NCBI GenBank assembly: GCA_048938895.1 | Contig: JBHLLU010000011.1 | Coordinates: 1-64,000 of the forward strand | Source of the DNA: Promethearchaeota archaeon | Lineage (GTDB): Archaea > Asgardarchaeota > Lokiarchaeia > Sigyniarchaeales > SOKP01 | Reading direction: 5' to 3' | Length of the DNA: 64,000 bases | Shown: in pieces, positions 7,958-61,766 of the stretch | Layout: each line of letters begins with the position of its first letter | Position numbering within the stretch: position 1 is the stretch's first letter | The notes under the pieces: generated by a model | The model's input: only the letters and a program-made list of their open reading frames with translations | Database searches by the model: none | What the model was told of the DNA's origin: nothing | Translations under genes and position numbers: made by a program

Positions 7958-10753
7958 ATGGATTTTAAAAAAATCTATAAACGGGGTTTAGGTATTTCAA
8001 TTTTACTCCTTATCGTTATTATAAGTGTTCTATTCGTGCCTAATTTAACTAAAAAACATTTATCGAATGGAAATTCACTTTTTACTAGCGGACCTGACGA
8101 TGCTTATGAACCCAACAATACACCTTCCACAGCTTATAATCTCACAATGTGGGAAGATTATTGGTTAAGTGGTATTAGTGGTTCCGGTATTTTGGAAGAT
8201 GATGACTTTTATGTAATCAATGTTAAAATAGGGTTCGAACATCTACAAATTAATTTAACCTTCTCCCACCTCTTGGGCAACATCGATATTGATCTTATGG
8301 ATAGCTCATATACAAATGTAACTGGGGCACAATCCATGACTGACAATGAATATATTGATACTAATGTTCCTTCAGCAGGAATTTATTATATCCGACTTTA
8401 TGGTCCAAATGCCTCAAACACTTATGATCTATGGTGGAAGACCTTCCCAATGGATGATGCATATGAACCTAATAATGATTGGACCTCTGCTTATGATCTT
8501 ACACCTTACCAAGATGTATGGCTCTCTTCAATTTTAGGTCCTGGAAGGCAATTTGATGATGATTGGTATAAAATTTATATCAGTTCTGGTTATGAATTTC
8601 TCCACGTTAGCCTTCTCTTCAATCATAGTATGGGAGACATTGATATCGCGCTTTATAATAGTACCTATTCTTTTATGACTTCGAGCACAGGAGTAATGGA
8701 TAATGAATATATTGATTTTATAGTACCATCATGGGGAGATTACTATCTACAAATTTATTATGGCAATATGGGGAATCAATATGATCTATGGTGGGATACT
8801 ACGACGTCATTAGACGATGCTTATGAGGAAAATGATTATGATTGGGAAGCTTATGATCTTTCCCCATGGTCAGCTTCATGGTTACCATATGGATTAGGGT
8901 ATCAGTTTGATGATGATTGGTATACTGTTTATTTGGATCCTGGAGAAGAGCGAATATATGCTGAACTTGTCTTTTCACATGCAGCAGGAAATATTGATAT
9001 GGAGCTATGGTATTGGGATGGTTCTTTCATACACTTAACTGGAAGTTATTCATATGATGATAACGAATACATTGATTTTGAAGTCCCTTGGTCAGGCATT
9101 TATTACATCAGAATTTTTGGAGATAATACAGGTAATTCCTATGATTTATGGTGGGAAGATCTTATGCCGACAGGTGATGATTGGATGGAAGAGAATGACG
9201 ACTTCTGGAGTGCGTGTTATGTCGATCCGAACTACTATTCAGGTCTTAAACTTGTGTATAGTGATAATGATTGGTTTAGGACTTATTTAAAAAATGGACA
9301 AACGCTTGATATTACTATCTACTTTAACCATATGGAAGGGGATTTAGAATTAGAATTATGGGATCCTTCAAATGGGTACCGAGATGGATCTTATTCAATT
9401 ACCGATAACGAATATATCTCTTACCGTGTGGATTCATCAGGAGATTGGCGTTTTCGAGTGTATCATGCTTCTGCAGATTCTATAGTTTACTATGATTTAG
9501 ATATCTGGGTAAATGCAGGAGAAGATACTAAAGATGATTGGATGGAAGAAAATGATGGCTTTTGGAGCTCTTGGTACGTTGATCCTAACTATTACTCTGG
9601 TCTTATTCTTAATAATGATGATGAAGACTGGTTTCACACTTATCTCAATGTAGGGGATGTCTTAGATGTAAGTCTTTATTTCGACCATGGTAAAGGAAAT
9701 TTAGAATTAGAACTATGGAGTCCTTCACAAACTTTAAGAGCAGGATCTTATAATGAGTATGGTTATGAATATATTTCATACATGGTAGATATATCAGGAG
9801 ATTGGAGAATTAGAGTCTATCATGCAGATGCAGATTCTAAGGTTTACTATGATTTGGGAATCTGGATAAAAGATGACTATTATGAATGGAATAATCATCC
9901 GGATGATATAATGTGGGATGGCAAACTTCATATGAATCATCCTTCAGTTCTCATTCAAAATGAGCGAACTTGGCTCAGTAATCTTCATGGATTAGCAGTA
10001 CAAGAATATGACGATTGGTATTTCATTGAAATAACTCCTGGTTTCGAGCATCTCAGACTGGAACTAATTTTTAACCATTCTTTGGGTAATATAGATGTTG
10101 AAATTTATGGTCAAGGAAGTTCTTTACCTTTGGTTAGTAGCACCTCCGTGACAGATAATGAATCTATCGATTATTTCCTTCCAGATCCCTTACCACAACC
10201 AGAAATTTTTGCTGTTCGTGTTTATGGAGATGATATGAGAAACAAGTATGATATGTGGTGGGATGACATAAGGAATGACACTAGATCTGATGATAATTAT
10301 GAGATAAATAATGATGCAATTTCTGCCTATGATATATCATGGGCTGAAAATAGGTCTTTATGGGGAATAGATGGTTTAGCGATTCAATATGATCAAGATT
10401 GGTATGAGATTTATGTAGATGAAACCGGTTTAGAATTAATTGTACTTCTTATTTATGATTCAGCTGAAGGTTTAATGGGTTTTGAAGTGTACGATTGGGA
10501 TCTTAACAAAATCACAGGGAATTTTACTCTAGAGGATAATGATTATATTATCTACCCTGTTTCTAACGGAACTTATTATATTAGAGTTTATGGGGATAAT
10601 TCGGGGAATATATATAATTTATGGTGGGGAACACGAGAACATGAAAAGGTTGGAATGATACCTAGTTATGATCTATTTATTTTAATAGCATCGATATTAG
10701 GGATCACGACAATTATTATTAAATTAAAGAGGAGTAAATTTAAGAAGAATTAA
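7958..10753 (+). CDS. Cell-surface protein with 7 PPC-like beta-sandwich repeats and Loki-CTERM-like anchor
   Basis: N-terminal signal/TM segment; seven ~115-140-aa repeats starting DDxxExN(N/D); C-terminal IPSY + TM + basic tail. Confidence 0.85.
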   Translation: MDFKKIYKRGLGISILLLIVIISVLFVPNLTKKHLSNGNSLFTSGPDDAYEPNNTPSTAYNLTMWEDYWLSGISGSGILEDDDFYVINVKIGFEHLQINLTFSHLLGNIDIDLMDSSYTNVTGAQSMTDNEYIDTNVPSAGIYYIRLYGPNASNTYDLWWKTFPMDDAYEPNNDWTSAYDLTPYQDVWLSSILGPGRQFDDDWYKIYISSGYEFLHVSLLFNHSMGDIDIALYNSTYSFMTSSTGVMDNEYIDFIVPSWGDYYLQIYYGNMGNQYDLWWDTTTSLDDAYEENDYDWEAYDLSPWSASWLPYGLGYQFDDDWYTVYLDPGEERIYAELVFSHAAGNIDMELWYWDGSFIHLTGSYSYDDNEYIDFEVPWSGIYYIRIFGDNTGNSYDLWWEDLMPTGDDWMEENDDFWSACYVDPNYYSGLKLVYSDNDWFRTYLKNGQTLDITIYFNHMEGDLELELWDPSNGYRDGSYSITDNEYISYRVDSSGDWRFRVYHASADSIVYYDLDIWVNAGEDTKDDWMEENDGFWSSWYVDPNYYSGLILNNDDEDWFHTYLNVGDVLDVSLYFDHGKGNLELELWSPSQTLRAGSYNEYGYEYISYMVDISGDWRIRVYHADADSKVYYDLGIWIKDDYYEWNNHPDDIMWDGKLHMNHPSVLIQNERTWLSNLHGLAVQEYDDWYFIEITPGFEHLRLELIFNHSLGNIDVEIYGQGSSLPLVSSTSVTDNESIDYFLPDPLPQPEIFAVRVYGDDMRNKYDMWWDDIRNDTRSDDNYEINNDAISAYDISWAENRSLWGIDGLAIQYDQDWYEIYVDETGLELIVLLIYDSAEGLMGFEVYDWDLNKITGNFTLEDNDYIIYPVSNGTYYIRVYGDNSGNIYNLWWGTREHEKVGMIPSYDLFILIASILGITTIIIKLKRSKFKKN

Positions 10754-10853: not shown

Positions 10854-11185
10854 TGACAAATTGAGCTGTTGAGCTGACGGTGGGCATGACCCGCTGAGGA
10901 ACCTCACCTCACTCTCCAAGCAAGGTGTAGATAACTACTACGATGAAAATCGTAATCTGAGTGCAGAAACGACACTGCCTTTTCACGCATATTAATGATT
11001 TGGATATAAGCCAGAGAAATTGTGGGAAGGAATGGTTGAAACGAGTCAGACCCTTGGTGCAAGGCCAAATGAAAGCGTTAATGTACTTGGAGCTAGCTTT
11101 AGGTAGACCGCTTAGTTTGATGCTCAATCCTATTTTTGGCGACGAAAATAGTAGACAGAAAGGTGGGTACAAGCTCAAGTTGTCA
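10854..11185 (+). ncRNA. rnpB: Archaeal RNase P RNA
   Basis: GC-rich island; P4 halves GAGGAACCTCACC and ACAGAAAGGTGGGT; GTGCAGAAAC, GTTGAAACG, GGTGCAAGGCCAAAT, GGTAGACCGCTTAG motifs; P1 pairs TGACAA-A-TTGAGCT with AGCTCAA-G-TTGTCA; TATA-like TTAAATA about 28 nt upstream. Confidence 0.93.
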
Positions 11186-19807: not shown

Positions 19808-19859
19808 TTGTTCCATTAATACTTATAAAATAACAAAATTTTTGCTCTCTCGAATTATT

Positions 19860-21053
19860 ATGGATGAGGATGCATTTAGAAGACAATTTAGCAAGAAATC
19901 GGTTTTCAAGAGTTTATCTTCACTCGATAAGAGTTGGGTTCCTGAAAAATTATTATGTCGAGATGATGCCCTTGGAACATTAATAGTTAATTATAGACGT
20001 ATCTTAGAAGAGGCAGAACAACCTTCTATTAATTGTCTTATATTAGGGAAGGGAGGTGTTGGGAAAACTTGTACTGCCCGGTATTTCGGTAAAAACTTTA
20101 GAACTGTTGCGATTGAGAAGGACGTAAAAATTTTTATAGAATATTTTGATTGTATCAATTTCCGCTCTAAAAGCAAGATTATTAGAGAGCTTTTAGCAAA
20201 ATACACTCATGGTAGTGGCAGAGGATATTCAGACGATGAAGCATTAAAGTTAATTCTTACAAAATTGATTAGAGACAACGGATATATGCTATTGATTATT
20301 GATGAGGTACATTTACTTAAACCGGAAGATGTATTAGCATTCTTGAATATAGCAGAGACTTTTGGGCATCAAAACGCAAAATTGTCTATCCTAATGGTTA
20401 GCAGAGGTACAGATTGGATGAAAATTGAAAATGAGAAGATTTTAAGCCGATTAAATGAAAAAATTCCACTTAAACCTTATAAATTCGAGGAAGCTATGAA
20501 AATATTAGAATATCGCAGTGAGATTGCATTAAAAGAATATGTTGTTGATAAAGAGTTGCTAACTATGATTGCTCAGATTGTTGTTGAGAATAAAAATATG
20601 AGACATGGAATTGAAATTATAAGAAAAAGTGGACTATATTGCGATAAAGAAGGATTAGAGAAAATTAATGCGGATATTGTAAGAAAGGCGTCTGATGATG
20701 TATATCCTACATTTCGAGCGGATATTATAGATGATCTAAAAGACCAAGAGCTTTTGGCTTTACATGGAATTGTTAGAATTTTAATAAATAATGATACTCC
20801 ATTTGCATTAGTTGATGATGCCTATGAGGAGTACTGTGCTATATGCGAAAGTTATTCAATAGAACCCCATGTCAAAATGAGTTTTAGAAAGTATGTACGA
20901 CAACTAAACCAACTCAAAATTATAGCGTCTAAAACTGTTAGGATAGAAGATGCAACAAGGGGACGACATTTAGAAATAACGTTATTAGATATACCAGCAA
21001 CAAAACTAGCAGAACTGTTAGAAGATATATTTGAACGTATGTTTGCACATTAA
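19860..21053 (+). CDS. cdc6: Orc1/Cdc6 replication initiator
   Basis: WVPEKLLCRD, Walker A GKGGVGKT, INFR, Walker B IIDEVH, C-terminal wHTH; ATG 19860 preferred. Confidence 0.93.
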   Translation: MDEDAFRRQFSKKSVFKSLSSLDKSWVPEKLLCRDDALGTLIVNYRRILEEAEQPSINCLILGKGGVGKTCTARYFGKNFRTVAIEKDVKIFIEYFDCINFRSKSKIIRELLAKYTHGSGRGYSDDEALKLILTKLIRDNGYMLLIIDEVHLLKPEDVLAFLNIAETFGHQNAKLSILMVSRGTDWMKIENEKILSRLNEKIPLKPYKFEEAMKILEYRSEIALKEYVVDKELLTMIAQIVVENKNMRHGIEIIRKSGLYCDKEGLEKINADIVRKASDDVYPTFRADIIDDLKDQELLALHGIVRILINNDTPFALVDDAYEEYCAICESYSIEPHVKMSFRKYVRQLNQLKIIASKTVRIEDATRGRHLEITLLDIPATKLAELLEDIFERMFAH

Positions 21054-21124: not shown

Positions 21125-21386
21125 TCAATAGTCTTTTTCTTTAGATTCCTTAGAGGAGGAGTACCAATCTAACCATTCTTTTCGTCGATCTTTTTTGCGT
21201 TGAGTCTCATCAGCATTATTGATATTTTCATTTCTGACTTTCTTCCAGTAACTATCAAGTTCATGACGAGTTAAAGATAATCCGCAGGATTGACAAACGA
21301 TTTGCTTGATTGCTGATTGGTATTTCATGAACCCTCCACATTTCAGGTACACATTCAAAATGCAAACTTTCTGGGCAGCGGGCCAT
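21125..21386 (-). CDS. 77-aa zinc-ribbon protein, predicted spliced: join(21386->21369, 21340->21125)
   Basis: SD-like GGAG upstream of ATG 21386; spliced product MARCPECGGFMKYQSAIKQIVCQSCGLSL...RRKEWLDWYSSSKESKEKDY has two CxxCG knuckles; the unspliced ATG frame is out of phase with the downstream ORF. Confidence 0.75.
21341..21368 (-). other. Candidate 28-nt bulge-helix-bulge mRNA intron
   Basis: Fold CUGC-CCAG-AA^A-[GUUUGCAUU UUG AAUGUGUAC]-CUGA-AA^U-GUGG; cutting after the 2nd nt of each 3-nt bulge restores the frame. Confidence 0.72.
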
Positions 21387-21586
21387 TTAATTACCAACTC
21401 CTTTTTTTTTTTTCATAATTCAAGGCATCTAACCATACTAGTTATACTTATTGTTAGTTTTTATTATTTCTACCTATTACTAAAATAGAATCTTAGAAAA
21501 TTAAAATAATTATGGTATAATTAATAAGCCCTATATTTAATTTCTATCAATAATTTTGAGAATAAAACTAAATATTAAGTGAGTTT

Positions 21587-29684: not shown

Positions 29685-30986
29685 ATGAGTGACAATATCG
29701 CTGTTATCGGTTTATCTTGGGGTGATGAAGGTAAGGGTAAGTTTGTAGATTATTTAGCACAAAAAGCAGATGTGGTCGTGAGATACAATGGTGGAAATAA
29801 TGCTGGACATACAATTGAAGCTAATGGAATTAAATATAAATTTAAGTTAGTTCCCAGTGGAGCTCCATTAGAAAAAGAATGTGTTATTGCTAATGGTTGT
29901 GTCGTAGATCCGAAGGTATTACTTGAGGAAATAGATAATTTGAAAAAACTCAATAAAAATATAAATTTAAAATTAAGTTCGACTGCACACGTCATCTTTC
30001 CATTTCATCGTGTTTTAGATGGCCTAGAAGAAGAATCAAAAGGGATATATAGTGCAGGTACAACCAAAAGAGGGATTGGCCCTACGTATTCAGATAAAGC
30101 AGCTCGATGGGGTTTAAGAATTTTTGATTTAATTAACCCAAATTTGTTAAAACCCAAATTAGAAAAGCTATATAAGATAAAAAAAGACTTAATTCGAATT
30201 TATGATCCCTCTTGGGATATTGATTTCAATTCTATTTTTGAAGAATATAAATCCTATGGAGAACAGTTAAAACCCTATGTAATTGATACTGCATTTTATT
30301 TAAATAAGGTAATTGATTCTGGTAAAAAAGTTGTCTTTGAAGGAGCTCAGGGAAATCTATTAGGATTAGACCATGGAATGTATCCATTTGGAACTTCTTC
30401 AAATCCAAATGTTCTTGGGATTTCTGCGGGAACCGGAATCCCACCTAAAAAGCTAAATAAAGTGCTTGGAATTATTAAAGCATACACTTCAAGAGTTGGT
30501 TCAGGAAAATTTCCCACAGAATTATTTAATGATATAGCGGAAAAAATAAGGGAACAAGGTCGAGAATATGGGACAGTAACGGGAAGACCTAGAAGAGTAG
30601 GATGGATAGATCTTTTTAACATTAAATATGGGATAATGATTAATGGAGTAGATAAAATCGCAATAACTCTATTAGATGCTCTACAAGGTATTAATCCTGT
30701 TAAAATGTGTACCGGATACGAATTAGATGGAAAAATTCTCGAAAGTTGGCCAATTCAGCATGAAATAATCGAACAGTGTAAGCCAATTTATAAATTGTTT
30801 AAAGGATGGGAAGAAATAACAAGGGAGAGATGGCAAGAAATTGCTCAGAATGGGTACGAAGCGTTACCTGATACAATGAAAATATATATTCAAGCGATTA
30901 AGGAAGAATTACAGATTGAGATTGCTATGATCTCAATCGGACCTGATAGAACTGAAACTATTGTTATAGATAAAGATCTTTTCTAA
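29685..30986 (+). CDS. purA: Adenylosuccinate synthetase
   Basis: WGDEGKGK, GGNNAGHT, GTTKRGIGP, EGAQG, TVTGRPRRVGW. Confidence 0.98.
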   Translation: MSDNIAVIGLSWGDEGKGKFVDYLAQKADVVVRYNGGNNAGHTIEANGIKYKFKLVPSGAPLEKECVIANGCVVDPKVLLEEIDNLKKLNKNINLKLSSTAHVIFPFHRVLDGLEEESKGIYSAGTTKRGIGPTYSDKAARWGLRIFDLINPNLLKPKLEKLYKIKKDLIRIYDPSWDIDFNSIFEEYKSYGEQLKPYVIDTAFYLNKVIDSGKKVVFEGAQGNLLGLDHGMYPFGTSSNPNVLGISAGTGIPPKKLNKVLGIIKAYTSRVGSGKFPTELFNDIAEKIREQGREYGTVTGRPRRVGWIDLFNIKYGIMINGVDKIAITLLDALQGINPVKMCTGYELDGKILESWPIQHEIIEQCKPIYKLFKGWEEITRERWQEIAQNGYEALPDTMKIYIQAIKEELQIEIAMISIGPDRTETIVIDKDLF

Positions 30987-33048: not shown

Positions 33049-34035
33049 ATGGATCCTGCTATAATAATGACGATATTTCTGGTTATTTCCATATTAATCG
33101 CAATTGCGATTGGGGCTAATGATGAAACAATGGCACCTCTCTTTGGCTCAAGAATTCTTAACATGAGGCAGATCATTGTCTTAGCAACAATTTTTGCTAT
33201 ATTTGGAGCTTTATTATTAGGAGAGGGTGTGGCTAAATCTGTAGGCGATGATATTCTTGTAACAGATAATTTTGCAGCTAGTGTTGACCATAATGCTGTT
33301 GTCTTAACAATATTAATCTCAACAACGATTTGGTTACTATTAGCTAGTGCTTTAGGTTTGCCAATTTCAACAACTCATGCTACTATAGGGTCAATTATGG
33401 GTTTAGGGATGCTTTTAGGTGGTAGTAATGGTGTGGATTGGGATACAATTCTAGGAATGAGTATGTGGTGGTTATTATCTCCCATAGTAGGTTTTACTAT
33501 AACATATCTTGTTGTTATTCTATTAAATAGGCATAAAATAAAGCATTTGAATGGATTTCAGGATTTTGAAAGATCAGAAAAAAGATATGCTCTTGTAATT
33601 TTCATTGTAATATGTATAACTGCATTTTCAAGATCAGGTAATGATAGTTCAAATGCAGTTGGAATAGTAGTAGGCGTAGGGGAGGATATTAATATAACAG
33701 CATTATTAGTTATGACAGGTATTAGTTTAGCAATTGGTATAATAGTTTTAGGGAGAATAGTTATAAGAAACTTAGGTAGAATGACTGAACTCAGACCAAG
33801 TACAGCTTTTGCAGCACAATTCCCAACAGCTGCAGTTATGCTTATTGGTACTATTCAAAAAATTCCTCTTTCTGGTTCCCATATGCTTGTTGCGTCTTTA
33901 GTAGGATTATCGAAAGCTAGTAAAACTCCTATGAAGAAAGGATTATGGAAAATAATTGCAATCTGGTTATTAACCTTTCCTATTTCAGCTATCCTTGCAA
34001 TTATATTATATTTTCCTATAAGTGTTGGATTTTAA
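33049..34035 (+). CDS. pit: Inorganic phosphate transporter (PiT family)
   Basis: IGAND, GLPISTTHA, GNDSSNA, PLSGSH signatures. Confidence 0.93.
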   Translation: MDPAIIMTIFLVISILIAIAIGANDETMAPLFGSRILNMRQIIVLATIFAIFGALLLGEGVAKSVGDDILVTDNFAASVDHNAVVLTILISTTIWLLLASALGLPISTTHATIGSIMGLGMLLGGSNGVDWDTILGMSMWWLLSPIVGFTITYLVVILLNRHKIKHLNGFQDFERSEKRYALVIFIVICITAFSRSGNDSSNAVGIVVGVGEDINITALLVMTGISLAIGIIVLGRIVIRNLGRMTELRPSTAFAAQFPTAAVMLIGTIQKIPLSGSHMLVASLVGLSKASKTPMKKGLWKIIAIWLLTFPISAILAIILYFPISVGF

Positions 34036-34057
34036 TAAATTTTGATTTTTATTTATT

Positions 34058-35074
34058 CTATATATTTTCAGTATTACAAGGGACTGGAAGATCTTTCATA
34101 GTTAAAAGCCCCGGTCTTGCCTCAATTACTTTAGGAATGAGATTAACGACCATCGCTGAAGTACCTAAATCGCCATGAACTCCGCCAATTATTTTTTGTT
34201 CTAGTCGGGGTATACCTTCAATTATTACACTATCAAATTCTTCATGATCACCTGCATAAGCTATAAAATCTAATGTGATGAATTCTATACCATCCTTTTT
34301 TGCAAAAGCTTTGCTCTGCAAACCACATACATATCCTTTTGGTACGATTTCCCCATAAGATGTAGTAAGTTCATTTTCCAATTCGATTGCCTCAGGTGGT
34401 AATTCAATTATTTCATCATATTCTTTACCAAGTGCTGCTACAATCATTTGAATTGATTGGGTTAATCCAACATGCCCAGTGATTTCTTTCTTCCTTATTT
34501 TTTCATGAAATTCATCTTTGCTTAAACCAGTTCCAATTTTCTTTTGGAAGGGGACTCTTCTTTTTGTGGAATTCATCATTCTTGTCACTTTAATAGATTT
34601 TACACTTTGACATGGTGCCGTTAATACAATTGGGAGTAAATCCATAAGGTAACCAGGATTAATACCAGTTCCTACCACGCTTACACTATTAGATTTCGCA
34701 AGTTCATCAATTTTTTTAGATAATTTGGGATGGCAATGAAATGGAAACGATAATTCTTCACAAATAGAAATTACATTAATTCCAGATTTAACCGCACTTT
34801 TGATGGTAGGGATTATTTTTTCTAAAGAGGAAGATGTTGCGATTATAGCAACATCAACCTTTTCTTTCAAAAGGAAAGTATCTAGATCATCCCTTATAAT
34901 CAAATCATTTTCCTTTCCATTATCTAAAAATTTGCTAATTTTTTTACCGATAAGTTCTGGATTAATATCAAAGATTCCTCTCAATTCAAGATTTTTCCGT
35001 TTAAGCAGAAGAGTTGTGATAATTCTGCCCATAGGACCAAATCCAACTTGTATAACATCAAATCTTTTATTCAT
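34058..35074 (-). CDS. NAD(P)-dependent amine dehydrogenase (2,4-diaminopentanoate dehydrogenase/DapB-like)
   Basis: VGFGPMG, NVISICEEL, GTGINPGYLMD, GGVHGDLGT. Confidence 0.85.
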   Translation of the reverse strand: MNKRFDVIQVGFGPMGRIITTLLLKRKNLELRGIFDINPELIGKKISKFLDNGKENDLIIRDDLDTFLLKEKVDVAIIATSSSLEKIIPTIKSAVKSGINVISICEELSFPFHCHPKLSKKIDELAKSNSVSVVGTGINPGYLMDLLPIVLTAPCQSVKSIKVTRMMNSTKRRVPFQKKIGTGLSKDEFHEKIRKKEITGHVGLTQSIQMIVAALGKEYDEIIELPPEAIELENELTTSYGEIVPKGYVCGLQSKAFAKKDGIEFITLDFIAYAGDHEEFDSVIIEGIPRLEQKIIGGVHGDLGTSAMVVNLIPKVIEARPGLLTMKDLPVPCNTENI

Positions 35075-56894: not shown

Positions 56895-57038
56895 ATTTTT
56901 TGTGGTTGTTTTTATTAGATTTTTTTTGACATTTTTGTTGTAAAAATATGTAGTTTTTATGTAAATTCTTTTTCCGTTATATTAGAACATATATAAAATA
57001 TAATCAGTTCATTTTTAAGTTAATAATCCTATTACAAT

Positions 57039-57163
57039 GTAGGAAGGGAAATTTAAAAAAAGAATTCTGCGCTCAACATTGGATTTCGCCCTCTATTAAA
57101 CTCTCTGAGTTTAATTCTCTCCCTGATTTTATTAATTTTGGCGTAGACTTCTCTTCCCTTACC
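57039..57163 (+). ncRNA. Candidate structured RNA of unknown class
   Basis: Nested stems 57042-57050/57149-57157 and 57066-57072/57141-57147 (G-U wobbles only on the + strand); perfect 9-bp hairpin 57095-57115; T-rich tail. Confidence 0.4.
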
Positions 57164-57270
57164 TTTTCTTAAAATTAATCTCAGAGAAGCAATATTTATT
57201 ATTATTAATTTTAGATTAGACTATCATAGTAAGAGGAAAAAGAGCAAAAATTATAAAATTCTCAATAATG

Positions 57271-57429
57271 TTAATTGGTAGAGATCCAATGCCGACAAAC
57301 GATACATTGAAGGATCTTTTGAAATTCGATCTTCTTAGAATTGTTGGTTCGAATTTTTCTCTGGATCATCACGTTACCGCATTTGGTACATATAGTCAAG
57401 TCTTTTGGTTTTAACTTGTGTACGGTCAC
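57271..57429 (-). CDS. 52-aa zinc-ribbon microprotein (not in ORF track)
   Basis: GTG start after GTGAT SD-like; MTVHKLKPKDLTICTKCGNVMIQRKIRTNNSKKIEFQKILQCIVCRHWISTN*. Confidence 0.78.
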   Translation of the reverse strand: MTVHKLKPKDLTICTKCGNVMIQRKIRTNNSKKIEFQKILQCIVCRHWISTN

Positions 57430-57589
57430 GTATGAGATCACAATAAGCTGATTATTTTAATAAAGATTTATCTATCTGTTTTTCCTGACAAAATTGCCAT
57501 TTACCGATAAACCAACCCTTATTTAGATATTAATAGCTCTTTAATTATTTAAATATGTGTTTAAGTAAAGATTGTCTGGATTATGCTTT

Positions 57590-60214: not shown

Positions 60215-60610
60215 ATGACAATAATTAATATTTCTATTCCCTTCGGATTGGTTAAGGATATTGATGATTATTCGAAAGTGGTTAATGATATTTTGAAACA
60301 TGATATCACTTTTAATATCCTAAAGTTTTCTACTGGCTCAGTGGGAATAAATTTATTGCTGGATATACCTGAAGAAAAAGTAAAAACAATAACTGAGTCA
60401 TTGATAAAGAGTAATATTATTGTAAACAAAAAAGGAAGAGTAATTGTAGACATTGAAAGATGTATAGACTGTGGTGCATGTATATCTCTATGTCCTACAG
60501 ATGCTTTACATTTCAATGGTGAAGAGAGATTGGAATTCTCCTATGAAAAATGTATTGGTTGTTTATTATGCATAGATTCATGTCCAAGGTATGCAATTGA
60601 AGAAATGTAA
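60215..60610 (+). CDS. NIL domain + 2[4Fe-4S] ferredoxin (MA1822-like partner)
   Basis: FNILK NIL-like N-terminus; CIDCGACISLCP and CIGCLLCIDSCP; starts 2 nt after the DUF39 stop. Confidence 0.9.
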   Translation: MTIINISIPFGLVKDIDDYSKVVNDILKHDITFNILKFSTGSVGINLLLDIPEEKVKTITESLIKSNIIVNKKGRVIVDIERCIDCGACISLCPTDALHFNGEERLEFSYEKCIGCLLCIDSCPRYAIEEM

Positions 60611-60617
60611 ATCTAAA

Positions 60618-61766
60618 TCAAGATTTTTTGTTTAATGGGAGATGGACATAAAAAGTGGTTCCTTCTTTTTTTGTAGATTGAAAATCTACATGTCCTCCCA
60701 GATATCGTTCTGTAAGCAACTTCACACTATATGTTCCTATTCCTCTTCCTGGTCCTTTAGTCGAGAAGGATCTTTGAAAGATCTGACTTTTTACACTTTC
60801 TGTCATAACACCAGAATTTTCAACCCTAAAAGTTATTTTTTGATTTGTAATTCTAGTCCCTATTTTTACGGTTTCACCAGGTTTACTAGCCTCCAATGCA
60901 TTTTCAATTAGATTTATCAGAATTCGAGATAAAAGGCTAGAATCTGTTTGAAACATAACTGATGTAGAATTATTGTCAAGTTCAACTAATTTATCTTTAA
61001 TGATATCCTTCGAATTCATAAGATCTATAGTTGATTGTAAAATATCTAAAGAATAATGGTTTTTAAGGTCTATTATGAGTTCGCTGTTTTCAGCCGCTAT
61101 CAGATCCCTTTGAGTTAAAAACTCTTCAACCATAATATGAATAGATTTCTTTATTCGACTGAAGTATTCGTTTTGAGTTGAATTTAAACCTTCTATGGGA
61201 AAAAGCTCAATTAAACCTTTTACAACTGTTAATAAATTTATTAAATCATGTAGAAAAGTCTTCTCTAATAGTTCTCGACGCTTTAGATTGCTAATATCTG
61301 AGAGGAAAACCATTACAAATACTTTATTCATTAAATTGAATGGCTGGGCTATGATATTCAAATCAAATGAAATTAAATTTCCCTTGAAGTTAGATGTAAT
61401 ACGACTCTCACAACTTATTCTCTTATTCGTTTTCAAGCTCTCAAGTACCGCATTTACAGCACCACAATATCGACAAGCTTGACCAGTACCACATCCATGG
61501 ATAAAATCTTTTGAATGAATGCAATTAAATATTTCTCCTGGTCTTGAACCCATTGCCTCTTCAATATTTTTAATACCTAACATCTGAATAATTTTTTGAT
61601 TTAAAAACACCGCTTGGCGCTCTTCATTAACAATAAGTACCATATTCGGTATCATATTGAGAATCTCTTCAAAATTGGTATTAAAAATTTCTTTTATTTC
61701 CTCTCTAATTTCTTCAAGACTCTTACGTTTTGCAGGAGCATAATAAGTATCTAGTTCTTTCTTCAT
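60618..61766 (-). CDS. PAS-domain sensor histidine kinase
   Basis: PAS with CIHS..GCGTGQACRYC; H-box FLHDLIN; N-box NLIENALEA; FSTKGPGRGIGTY G-box. Confidence 0.92.
   Translation of the reverse strand: MKKELDTYYAPAKRKSLEEIREEIKEIFNTNFEEILNMIPNMVLIVNEERQAVFLNQKIIQMLGIKNIEEAMGSRPGEIFNCIHSKDFIHGCGTGQACRYCGAVNAVLESLKTNKRISCESRITSNFKGNLISFDLNIIAQPFNLMNKVFVMVFLSDISNLKRRELLEKTFLHDLINLLTVVKGLIELFPIEGLNSTQNEYFSRIKKSIHIMVEEFLTQRDLIAAENSELIIDLKNHYSLDILQSTIDLMNSKDIIKDKLVELDNNSTSVMFQTDSSLLSRILINLIENALEASKPGETVKIGTRITNQKITFRVENSGVMTESVKSQIFQRSFSTKGPGRGIGTYSVKLLTERYLGGHVDFQSTKKEGTTFYVHLPLNKKS

Follow-up and report, generated by a model that had tools for sequence, protein, structure and literature searches.

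The stretch analyzed here (the window) comprises 64,000 nucleotides, positions 1 to 64,000 of contig JBHLLU010000011.1 of a Promethearchaeota archaeon (assembly GCA_048938895.1). On its minus strand it carries an interrupted gene for a small TFIIB-type C4 zinc-ribbon protein (21125-21386), which would measure 77 aa after splicing and has a basic/aromatic C-terminal tail (…RRKEWLDWYSSSK…). Exon 1 (21369-21386) consists of ATG GCC CGC TGC CCA GAA, encodes MARCPE and holds the first Cys of the CPxC knuckle. Exon 2 (21125-21340) comprises 216 nt, i.e., 71 codons plus stop (CGGFMKY…CQSCG…). Between them lies a 28-nt segment (21341-21368), A|GUUUGCAUU-UUG-AAUGUGUAC-CUGA-AA in the transcript, which on its fold and on comparison with relatives is a probable bulge-helix-bulge (BHB) intron and is single-copy in the genome.

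On the minus strand, GGAG-TTGGTAATTAA-ATG (21386-21384) is followed by GCC CGC TGC CCA GAA, the codon GAA ending at 21369. After ATG(21386)GCCCGCTGCCCAGAA comes the 28-nt insert AGTTTGCATTTTGAATGTGTACCTGAAA (21368-21341) and then TGTGGAGGG, with exon 2 resuming at 21340 as TGT GGA GGG TTC ATG. Unspliced, the frame of ATG-21386 gives a 41-aa dead-end peptide (MARCPESLHF...), and the exon-2 frame is open back to TTG-21397, forming a 90-aa open reading frame (ORF; MVIKWPAAQK...CGGFMKY...CQSCG...) that ends at 21125. Removal of the 28 nt joins MARCPE to CGGFMKY…CQSCG… in a product of 6 + 71 = 77 aa with the N-terminus MARCPECGGFMKY, and MARCPECGGFMK is the N-terminal peptide predicted for this spliced product. 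The strand sequence, the insert and both frames had been described in the initial annotation of this DNA, and direct reading bears them out.

No Pfam or NCBIfam family matched the zinc-ribbon protein at its cut-off (Zn_Ribbon_TF reached 18.7 bits against a cut-off of 29). The Atlas cluster of the protein is named 'putative TFIIB-type domain-containing protein', and the Pfam, NCBIfam and Atlas matches are all sub-threshold zinc ribbons. With the 71-aa translation of exon 2 as the query, 59 proteins were matched, 30 of which were examined individually. Eighteen of these 30 measure 72-77 aa and contain an intact CPEC knuckle from residue 4-5, most of them starting with MARCPECGG or MSRCPECGG, and one further entry of 96 aa has an uninterrupted MARCPECGG behind an upstream extension. 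Four homologues of 83-90 aa carry unrelated N-terminal extensions ending in …YLKCGG; the extended forms start with MVIIWPAAQKV…, MVIKWPVAQKV…, MVDKWPVAQKV… and MPRKLAACC…. The remaining seven (57-67 aa) start internally at a Met, which in five cases is that of MKY…. The longer public calls (83-90 aa) look like mis-annotations through the intron, the expected length being 76-77 aa, and the short internal-Met forms look like calls on interrupted or N-terminally miscalled genes. The odd-length public records of this gene are P0002, P0005, P0008, P0011, P0017, P0018 and P0023. Because the homologues come from sources named Promethearchaeota, Lokiarchaeota, Hermodarchaeota, Heimdallarchaeota and Hodarchaeota, the gene is placed in the Asgard archaea; the NCBI taxonomy ranks Promethearchaeota as an archaeal phylum.

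The gene was found in 36 of 41 whole genomes of relatives. None of the 12 outgroup loci, which belong to other families of the order, is interrupted (M[AP]xCPEC…), and among 23 loci read within the same genus an insert directly follows CCAGAA in 12 and is lacking in 11. Across 54 genomes of the genus, 16 contain the insert, 33 an uninterrupted gene, none both and five neither pattern; the exon-2 protein query matched in none of these five, and the reversed insert-specific pattern, used as a control, gave no match in the 54 genomes. The intron is thus polymorphic within the genus (16 of 49 gene-bearing genomes). The insert measures 28 nt in 5 genomes, 29 nt in 7 and 31 nt in 4, and its length is never a multiple of 3. 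Exon 2 is 66-92% identical to its orthologues in the genus, irrespective of whether they bear an insert. The initial annotation had expected both uninterrupted orthologues, which were found among the homologues (18/30) and at every outgroup locus, and relatives with a variable insert that keeps BHB covariation, which are represented by the three insert lengths and the compensatory hairpin changes described below.

A genome that consists of 174 contigs, with an estimated contamination of 7.49% and a completeness of 98.7%, might raise the suspicion of an error in assembly or sequencing or of a recently formed pseudogene. DNA contigs from three other runs of three studies (X2 record 1, X5 record 18 and X7 record 23) nevertheless cross the insert without an indel, and 15 other species-level genomes carry an insert of diverged sequence at the same site, which excludes misassembly. 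The downstream ORF is intact and conserved genus-wide, and three insert lengths with the same ends are unlike errors or random decay. An artefact or decay is therefore scarcely credible.

Predicted fold of the insert and selection on the exons

A BHB motif is laid out as h-H-bulge-h' on each strand, with the bulges on opposite strands, and is cut after the second bulge nucleotide. It is described as two 3-nt bulges with a 4-nt helix between them (PMC5829648). At the window locus (L001), the outer exon-exon helix h pairs CUGC (21375-21378, minus strand) with GUGG (21336-21339), while the central helix H pairs CCAG of exon 1 (21371-21374) with CUGA of the intron (21343-21346) through three pairs and a C.A mismatch. 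The 5' bulge AA|A (21368-21370) and the 3' bulge AA|U (21340-21342) have their predicted cuts after 21369 and 21341, respectively, and the intron hairpin, composed of h' and an inner stem-loop, occupies 21347-21367. This pairing had been proposed in the initial annotation, and it is the unconstrained minimum free energy (MFE) structure of L001, in which AUGGCCC also pairs with GGGUUCAU. Application of the cut rule gives the in-frame junction CCAGAA|UGUGG and the 77-aa product, as had been claimed, and in all 16 insert-bearing genomes, across lengths of 28, 29 and 31 nt, the same rule yields CCAGAA|UGYGG, which corresponds to MARCPE|CGG.

All 16 inserts start with [A/U]GU and end with ACCUGA-A[A/G] or, in the 31-nt type of G018, G062 and G067, with AACAUGG-[AU/AA/UU], and their interiors have diverged into at least four unrelated hairpin sequences. 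The outer G-C and U-A pairs of h' are invariant (16/16). In the inner stem, all three pairs show changes on both sides (12 cells). Over the whole structure, 86.7% of cells are paired versus 22-43% when the partners are slid by 1-3 columns; the 16-sequence alignment behind these figures was model-fitted, which favours structure, and kinship inflates the pairing counts. The covariation score of the insert alignment was reached by none of 500 shuffles. Each of the four pairs of helix h is formed in 14-16 of the 16 sequences, and a synonymous TGT/TGC change turns a G.U pair of this helix into G-C. The mismatch of the central helix is C.A in 13 sequences; the three AUGG-type introns have a C-G pair there and a G.A mismatch at the other end. 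While the helices persist, the letters of the bulges vary (AAA/AAU; AAU, AGU, AUU, UUU), and bulges of exactly 3 nt are possible in all 16, which conforms to the BHB definition in relaxed form. In genome G004 (L005/L040), the 29-nt intron holds an inner copy of its own 3' end (…ACCUGAAAGUAUACCUGAAA), which hints at a small duplication during intron evolution.

A relaxed BHB filter located the exact frame-restoring site in 10 of 12 orthologues and missed L016 and L018, which have three of the four outer pairs. From its hit rate of ~4.5e-4 per (site, length) cell over ~8,925 cells, and with three equivalent cut positions allowed, we calculated a chance of ~1e-3 for a filter hit at the sole frame-restoring junction. 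The value of the filter lies in the coincidence of its hit with the single junction that restores both the frame and the CPxC knuckle, in three insert lengths. When the same cut rule was tried on 12 intron-containing tRNA calls of this genome, it produced the same-anticodon intron-free tRNA in 4 (Met-CAT, Ser-GGA, Val-CAC and Arg-CCT), another tRNA in 2 and nothing in 6; many of these 12 genes have several or non-canonical introns.

In the 16 insert-bearing copies, variation in the 18 nt of exon 1 is confined to synonymous third positions of codons 2, 3 and 4, and the first codons of exon 2, Cys-Gly-Gly, likewise vary synonymously alone; the codon after these encodes Phe in 14 copies and Leu in two. 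Because exon 1 and CGG change synonymously while the interior of the insert diverges, exon 1 is, on this pattern of selection, predicted to be translated and joined to exon 2. The codons of the central helix appear to be constrained further: CCAGAA occurs in 12 of 12 insert-bearing loci, recognized with a codon-neutral regular expression, versus 5 of 11 uninterrupted ones (Fisher p = 0.0046, relatives not being independent), and genus-wide in 16 of 16 versus 16 of 33 copies. This freezing supports a constraint acting at the RNA level.

The same observations bear on whether the N-terminus has simply been inactivated, so that translation of the protein starts at the internal ATG (MKYQSAIKQ…, 67 aa) or at a TTG or ATG upstream in the exon-2 frame, MARCPE being a relic or a short upstream ORF. 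Public annotations do use internal-start forms (66-67 aa) and forms of 83-90 aa (MVIKWPAAQK…, MPRKLAACC…), and the internal ATG is kept in all copies. Neither start accounts for an exon 1 that changes synonymously alone in 16 diverged species while the insert interior diverges strongly, nor for the conserved CGG(F) codons (CGG with synonymous changes alone), which a 67-aa product does not need, and a truncated product would miss half of the C4 zinc site. In 3 of the 16 copies, the exon-2 frame upstream of CGG contains no ATG, GTG or TTG; where an upstream start exists, the extensions measure 2-19 codons and are unrelated in sequence. The TTG-21397 N-terminus (MVIKWPAAQK), which the initial annotation had listed as an alternative, is accordingly not conserved. 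We regard expression from an alternative start as unlikely.

Neither can the ATG frame be continued unspliced, since it stops after 7-41 aa in all 16 copies. Translational recoding, in which the insert stays in the mRNA and is passed by ribosome bypass, as in T4 gene 60, or by frameshifting, would fit the hairpin directly after the putative take-off codon GAA, and in G062 the three bases before exon 2 are also GAA. Bypassing in T4 gene 60 requires the take-off and landing codons to match. Of the landing triplets here, 12 are AAA, one is AAG, and GAU, GAA and GUU occur once each, so that the take-off codon is matched in 1 of 16. Insert lengths of 28, 29 and 31 nt would demand different frameshifts, and read-through would put 9-10 residues that are not conserved inside the CPxC knuckle. 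Between the exons, the frames contain stops or sequence lacking conservation, and in L045 and L050 the ATG frame ends at a stop no more than two codons past exon 1. Conservation is seen in the nucleotides that form the BHB and not in any slippery site. Recoding therefore appears highly improbable. A group I or group II intron was ruled out, as 28-31 nt compare with a ribozyme core of a few hundred nt; the sole Rfam match at gathering level in the window is the archaeal RNase P RNA (RF00373, 123.2 bits) at 10858-11181 on the plus strand.

Several points weigh against a BHB intron. The MFE of L001 (-13.4 kcal/mol) is no more stable than that of shuffles (-14.9 +/- 2.9 kcal/mol; z = 0.52), and the BHB-constrained fold coincides with the MFE in just 2 of 12 orthologues, lying 2.7-7.3 kcal/mol above it in 7 of 12. 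The central helix, with three of four standard pairs in all 16 copies, is imperfect, and the outer helix has all four pairs in 14 of 16 and three in L016 and L018. Exon pairing is largely dictated by the protein: of seven outer pairs, two are invariant and four change on one side only, and because the conserved protein sequence dictates so much of it, this pairing cannot count as covariation. The relaxed filter is itself unspecific (~4 chance hits per ~190-nt shuffled sequence and 12 hits in the real L001 region). The internal ATG (MKYQ…), which underlies the 66-67 aa of some public annotations, could give a truncated protein without splicing, and none of the sequencing runs listed as holding the locus is RNA. 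Set against these, the comparative evidence for the intron is far beyond chance, and the proposal that the tRNA-splicing machinery processes an mRNA here was supported by every comparative test made. The 28 nt at 21368-21341 very probably represent an archaeal BHB intron inside the zinc-ribbon coding sequence, which would be removed by that machinery.

A second host gene and the frequency of such putative introns

Motif-free comparison between the window and the syntenic regions of two congeners revealed a second insert, in purA, the housekeeping gene for adenylosuccinate synthetase. In the window, purA (29685-30986, plus strand) is uninterrupted, and its P-loop sequence TGG GGT GAT GAA GGT AAG GGT AA lies at 29718-29740. 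The insert of the congeners falls between the bases equivalent to 29724 and 29725, 13 codons into the gene, where it splits the Asp codon of the P-loop (…GLSWG-D-EGKGK… / GDEGKGK). It occurs in 18 of the 54 genomes of the genus and measures 31 nt in 15 of them, 32 nt in two and 30 nt in one; purA is uninterrupted in 29, and no genome has both forms. The reversed-pattern control gave one match, in a genome without a forward match. Removal of the insert, with GGAG|AYGARGG as the predicted mRNA junction, restores GLSWGDEGKGKFVD in 18 of 18, and without splicing a stop follows within ~10 codons in 18 of 18.

In most insert-bearing purA copies, the unconstrained MFE displays a BHB-like motif directly, with AG|N as the 5' bulge, GGGG/CCCU as the central helix, A[U/A/G]|A as the 3' bulge and a strong hairpin in the intron. 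In the exon-exon helix, CUUUCG/CGAAGG, an additional U is left unpaired across from the 3' bulge, so that this is again a relaxed BHB. In an unfitted MAFFT alignment, compensatory changes were found in 7 of 17 pairs versus 2.8 +/- 1.0 after shuffling, and none of 500 shuffles scored as high; the compensating pairs include all five pairs of h' and an exon-exon pair of two synonymous sites (CUU…GAA vs CUC…GAG). All 18 insert-bearing copies use GGA for the Gly codon of the helix, where the search pattern would have accepted any base, versus 6 of 30 uninterrupted copies (p = 3.7e-8, relatives not being independent). In the four genomes judged, purA is single-copy, intact downstream and 81-84% identical over residues 14-433. 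An alternative start of the kind considered for the zinc-ribbon gene could not rescue a split P-loop in a single-copy gene with a conserved downstream part. The two introns are distributed independently, with nine genomes having both, seven the zinc-ribbon intron alone and nine the purA intron alone. The purA case greatly strengthens the reading that mRNAs of this genus would be spliced at BHB motifs.

The frequency of such introns was approached by the same motif-free comparison. A genome-wide BHB scan was dropped because the filter rate predicts ~10^5 chance hits per genome by our arithmetic, and because adjacent operon genes mimic exon pairs. The motif-free comparison set this genome (G000) against ~0.49 Mb of G002 and 51 kb of G004, with ~0.41 Mb of aligned sequence between G000 and G002. 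It gave 123 indels of 12-150 nt. The 25 whose 60-nt flanks were both at least 70% identical included purA and a pair of 31-nt inserts located in non-ORF elements that are conserved; beyond purA, no further clear case in coding sequence was found in the ~0.41 Mb aligned between G000 and G002. This result is a lower bound, for the comparison is blind to short first exons: the zinc-ribbon intron itself was missed, since the alignment does not continue past the intron into so short an exon 1. Two candidates were set aside. A pair of tblastn high-scoring segments at 33924-34175, with 40 extra nt in G002, was rejected as intergenic between convergent genes, and a 16-nt indel at 9910 lies inside a repeat-rich 931-aa ORF, where the alignment is ambiguous.

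One of the conserved non-ORF elements, at ~57060-57170 on the minus strand of the window, is RNA-like, with a T-run end and a hairpin AUUAAACUC-AGA-GAGUUUAAU; its G002 copy has a hairpin-forming 31-nt insert with flanks 80-98% identical. The second 31-nt insert of G002 lies in the other conserved non-coding element, at C144:47757 of G000. Elements of the 57060-57170 type had no Rfam match (searched over 56950-57300) and no aragorn match, and those with 31-nt inserts may be interrupted small RNA genes. Another small ORF of the window, 56 aa at 57271-57441 (minus strand), contains two CxxC pairs (CTKCG…CIVCRH) and may encode a small zinc-ribbon protein.

Since two unrelated genes 8 kb apart are affected, with independent distributions and just ~0.4 Mb compared, we tentatively consider that BHB mini-introns in protein-coding genes form a recurrent, evolving class in this Asgard lineage, a suggestion that we hold with less than even confidence. 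If it is true and such introns occur in tens of genes per genome, mRNAs encoded by 'genes in pieces' and served by the protein-only tRNA-splicing machinery would already exist in the archaea most closely related to eukaryotes, and many 'frameshifted', 'truncated' or oddly started genes in Asgard metagenome-assembled genomes would be genes with unspliced introns.

Splicing machinery and history of the probable zinc-ribbon intron

The genome encodes the EndA domain PF01974 twice (contig C83, region 69740-69964, 101.5 bits; C123, region 60606-60854, 68.1 bits) and RtcB (PF01139) once (C5, 38935-40242, 566.5 bits). Asgard EndA is described as an (alpha-beta)2-type enzyme, with an L1 loop linked to broad specificity (PMC5829648), which the two EndA-domain ORFs fit. 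Aragorn called just 24 tRNA genes in the genome, 13 of them with an intron, and several still look interrupted once one intron has been removed, which suggests that the tRNA genes are heavily, often multiply, interrupted. The low count and the called introns agree with the heavy interruption reported for Asgard tRNA genes (PMC11291895; preprint 10.64898/2026.10.13.758758).

With these components, the zinc-ribbon pre-mRNA would fold such that exon 1 pairs with exon 2 (CUGC/GUGG) and the last codons of exon 1 pair with the 3' end of the intron (CCAG/CUGA). This would leave two 3-nt bulges, four base pairs apart, beside the intron hairpin. The heteromeric EndA would cleave after the second nucleotide of each bulge, and RtcB would ligate CCAGAA to UGUGG, giving an mRNA for the 77-aa protein MARCPECGGFMKY…CQSCG… with its C4 zinc ribbon restored. 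We infer from sequence that such cleavage and ligation take place in vivo. The spliced CUGC-CCAGAAU-GCGG would form a 4-bp stem with a 7-nt loop, with the intron at the equivalent of position 37/38. The simplest reading is that of a constitutive, tolerated intron that spread from the intron-rich tRNA world into an mRNA site resembling an anticodon arm.

A tRNA-intron donor was searched for in the genome and not found. A second copy of the intron was not detected either, the blastn-short matches being at most 20 nt long with E values of at least 0.25. A regular expression for the conserved intron ends had three matches in the genome, two of them unrelated, and the covariance model R1 of the intron found its own locus alone in G000.

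The history of the intron was traced on a tree of Orc1/Cdc6, the convergent neighbour (19842-21053, plus strand), which is syntenic genus-wide. Of the 19 rows of this tree, 10 have the insert and 9 lack it; the tree omits L020-L023, which had no Cdc6 match >350 aa, and the later loci G052, G055, G062 and G067. Insert-bearing genomes sit in both main clades, and presence of the insert takes five parsimony changes, at least two of them forced by well-supported branches; the label is not significantly clustered on the tree (83 of 500 shuffles were equally low). Because the insert ends and the site are identical in both clades, we infer that the intron was gained once, early in the genus, and then probably lost precisely several times. 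Possible alternatives are exchange of alleles and repeated gain.

This history bears on conditional splicing as an on-switch for expression, which the initial annotation had raised since the start codon and exon 1 lie in the outer stem. The MFE of L001 does pair AUGGCCC with GGGUUCAU, and the BHB intron in the 5' untranslated region (UTR) of Haloferax HVO_1309 seems to matter for expression (PMC7714728). The extended AUG stem is only partly conserved in the genus (pair 5-59 in 6 of 16), 33 of 49 gene-bearing congeners manage without the intron, and patchy presence on the neighbour-gene tree looks like neutral gain and loss, unlike a retained regulator. In purA, the start codon is not involved, the intron being 13 codons into the gene. 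The switch is thus unsupported and, in our judgement, very unlikely; for regulated splicing in general we saw no evidence here.

Comparison with known systems

HAC1/XBP1 splicing, to which the initial annotation had drawn a parallel, is protein-only and non-spliceosomal and removes a short, frame-changing mRNA intron, and a tRNA ligase (RtcB in animals) seals the exons. A link of RtcB to XBP-1 is reported (PMC8718801). The nuclease in that system is IRE1, which acts at twin 7-nt loops under stress regulation, and not EndA at a BHB; the parallel is unsupported beyond analogy and implies no homology or regulation here.

Archaeal tRNA introns share the motif geometry, the predicted cut rule, the enzymes and the similar size (28-31 nt) with the zinc-ribbon intron, and their spliced context is likewise a 4-bp stem and a 7-nt loop with the intron at position 37/38. 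Unlike in tRNA introns, the host RNA here would be an mRNA and the product a reading frame; no tRNA was detected in the window. The intron of HVO_1309 of Haloferax volcanii, which is 46 nt long, excised as a circle and cut in vitro by recombinant enzyme (PMC7714728), is likewise an EndA substrate in an mRNA, outside tRNA and rRNA. It lies in an untranslated leader and interrupts no codons, whereas the zinc-ribbon intron must go to restore the frame.

As of 2020, the BHB introns described in archaeal mRNA were those in the cbf5 coding sequence of Crenarchaeota and in the Haloferax 5' UTR (PMC7714728). In the passages searched, PMC11291895 and 10.64898/2026.10.13.758758 treat tRNA introns alone and do not mention mRNA introns, though the supplements could list non-tRNA BHB sites, and those of PMC4090602 have nothing on mRNA introns. 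In the full-text literature, a scope outside which supplements and most subscription journals fall, no report of BHB introns in Asgard protein-coding genes was found, so that this is the first BHB intron in an Asgard protein-coding gene that we could find. On comparative evidence, the present analysis adds two host genes in an Asgard genus, one of them purA, single-copy and split in its catalytic P-loop. If confirmed by RNA, protein-only mRNA splicing would extend to the lineage closest to eukaryotes, and gain and loss of such introns would be shown to proceed within the time span of a genus, as for these organisms' tRNA introns. Confirmation would also explain the mis-annotations, with public records of 90, 88, 83 or 66-67 aa instead of 76-77 aa, and would provide an easy test substrate for the Asgard EndA/RtcB system.

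The closest known counterpart is the cbf5 intron of Desulfurococcales and Sulfolobales (Watanabe 2002; Yokobori 2009, PMC2738675). There, too, the host is reported to possess a hetero-oligomeric EndA of broad specificity, the intron to have been gained in the lineage and then lost precisely in particular lineages, and the gene to be routinely mis-annotated (PMC2738675). The host genes differ, being the zinc-ribbon gene and purA here, in the Asgard/Promethearchaeota phylum, and cbf5 of the present genome (G000 C5:24284-24625, minus strand) is uninterrupted, forming a single open 342-aa frame without stops. Splicing of cbf5 was shown experimentally, while that of the zinc-ribbon gene is predicted. 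Unlike the cbf5 intron, it follows codon 6 after an exon 1 of just 18 nt and is polymorphic in one genus (16/49), and a second gene of the same genus, purA, is affected. The zinc-ribbon intron is therefore of the same kind as the cbf5 introns and a different intron, and its interest, which we consider high, rests on the lineage, the second essential host gene and the turnover within a genus.

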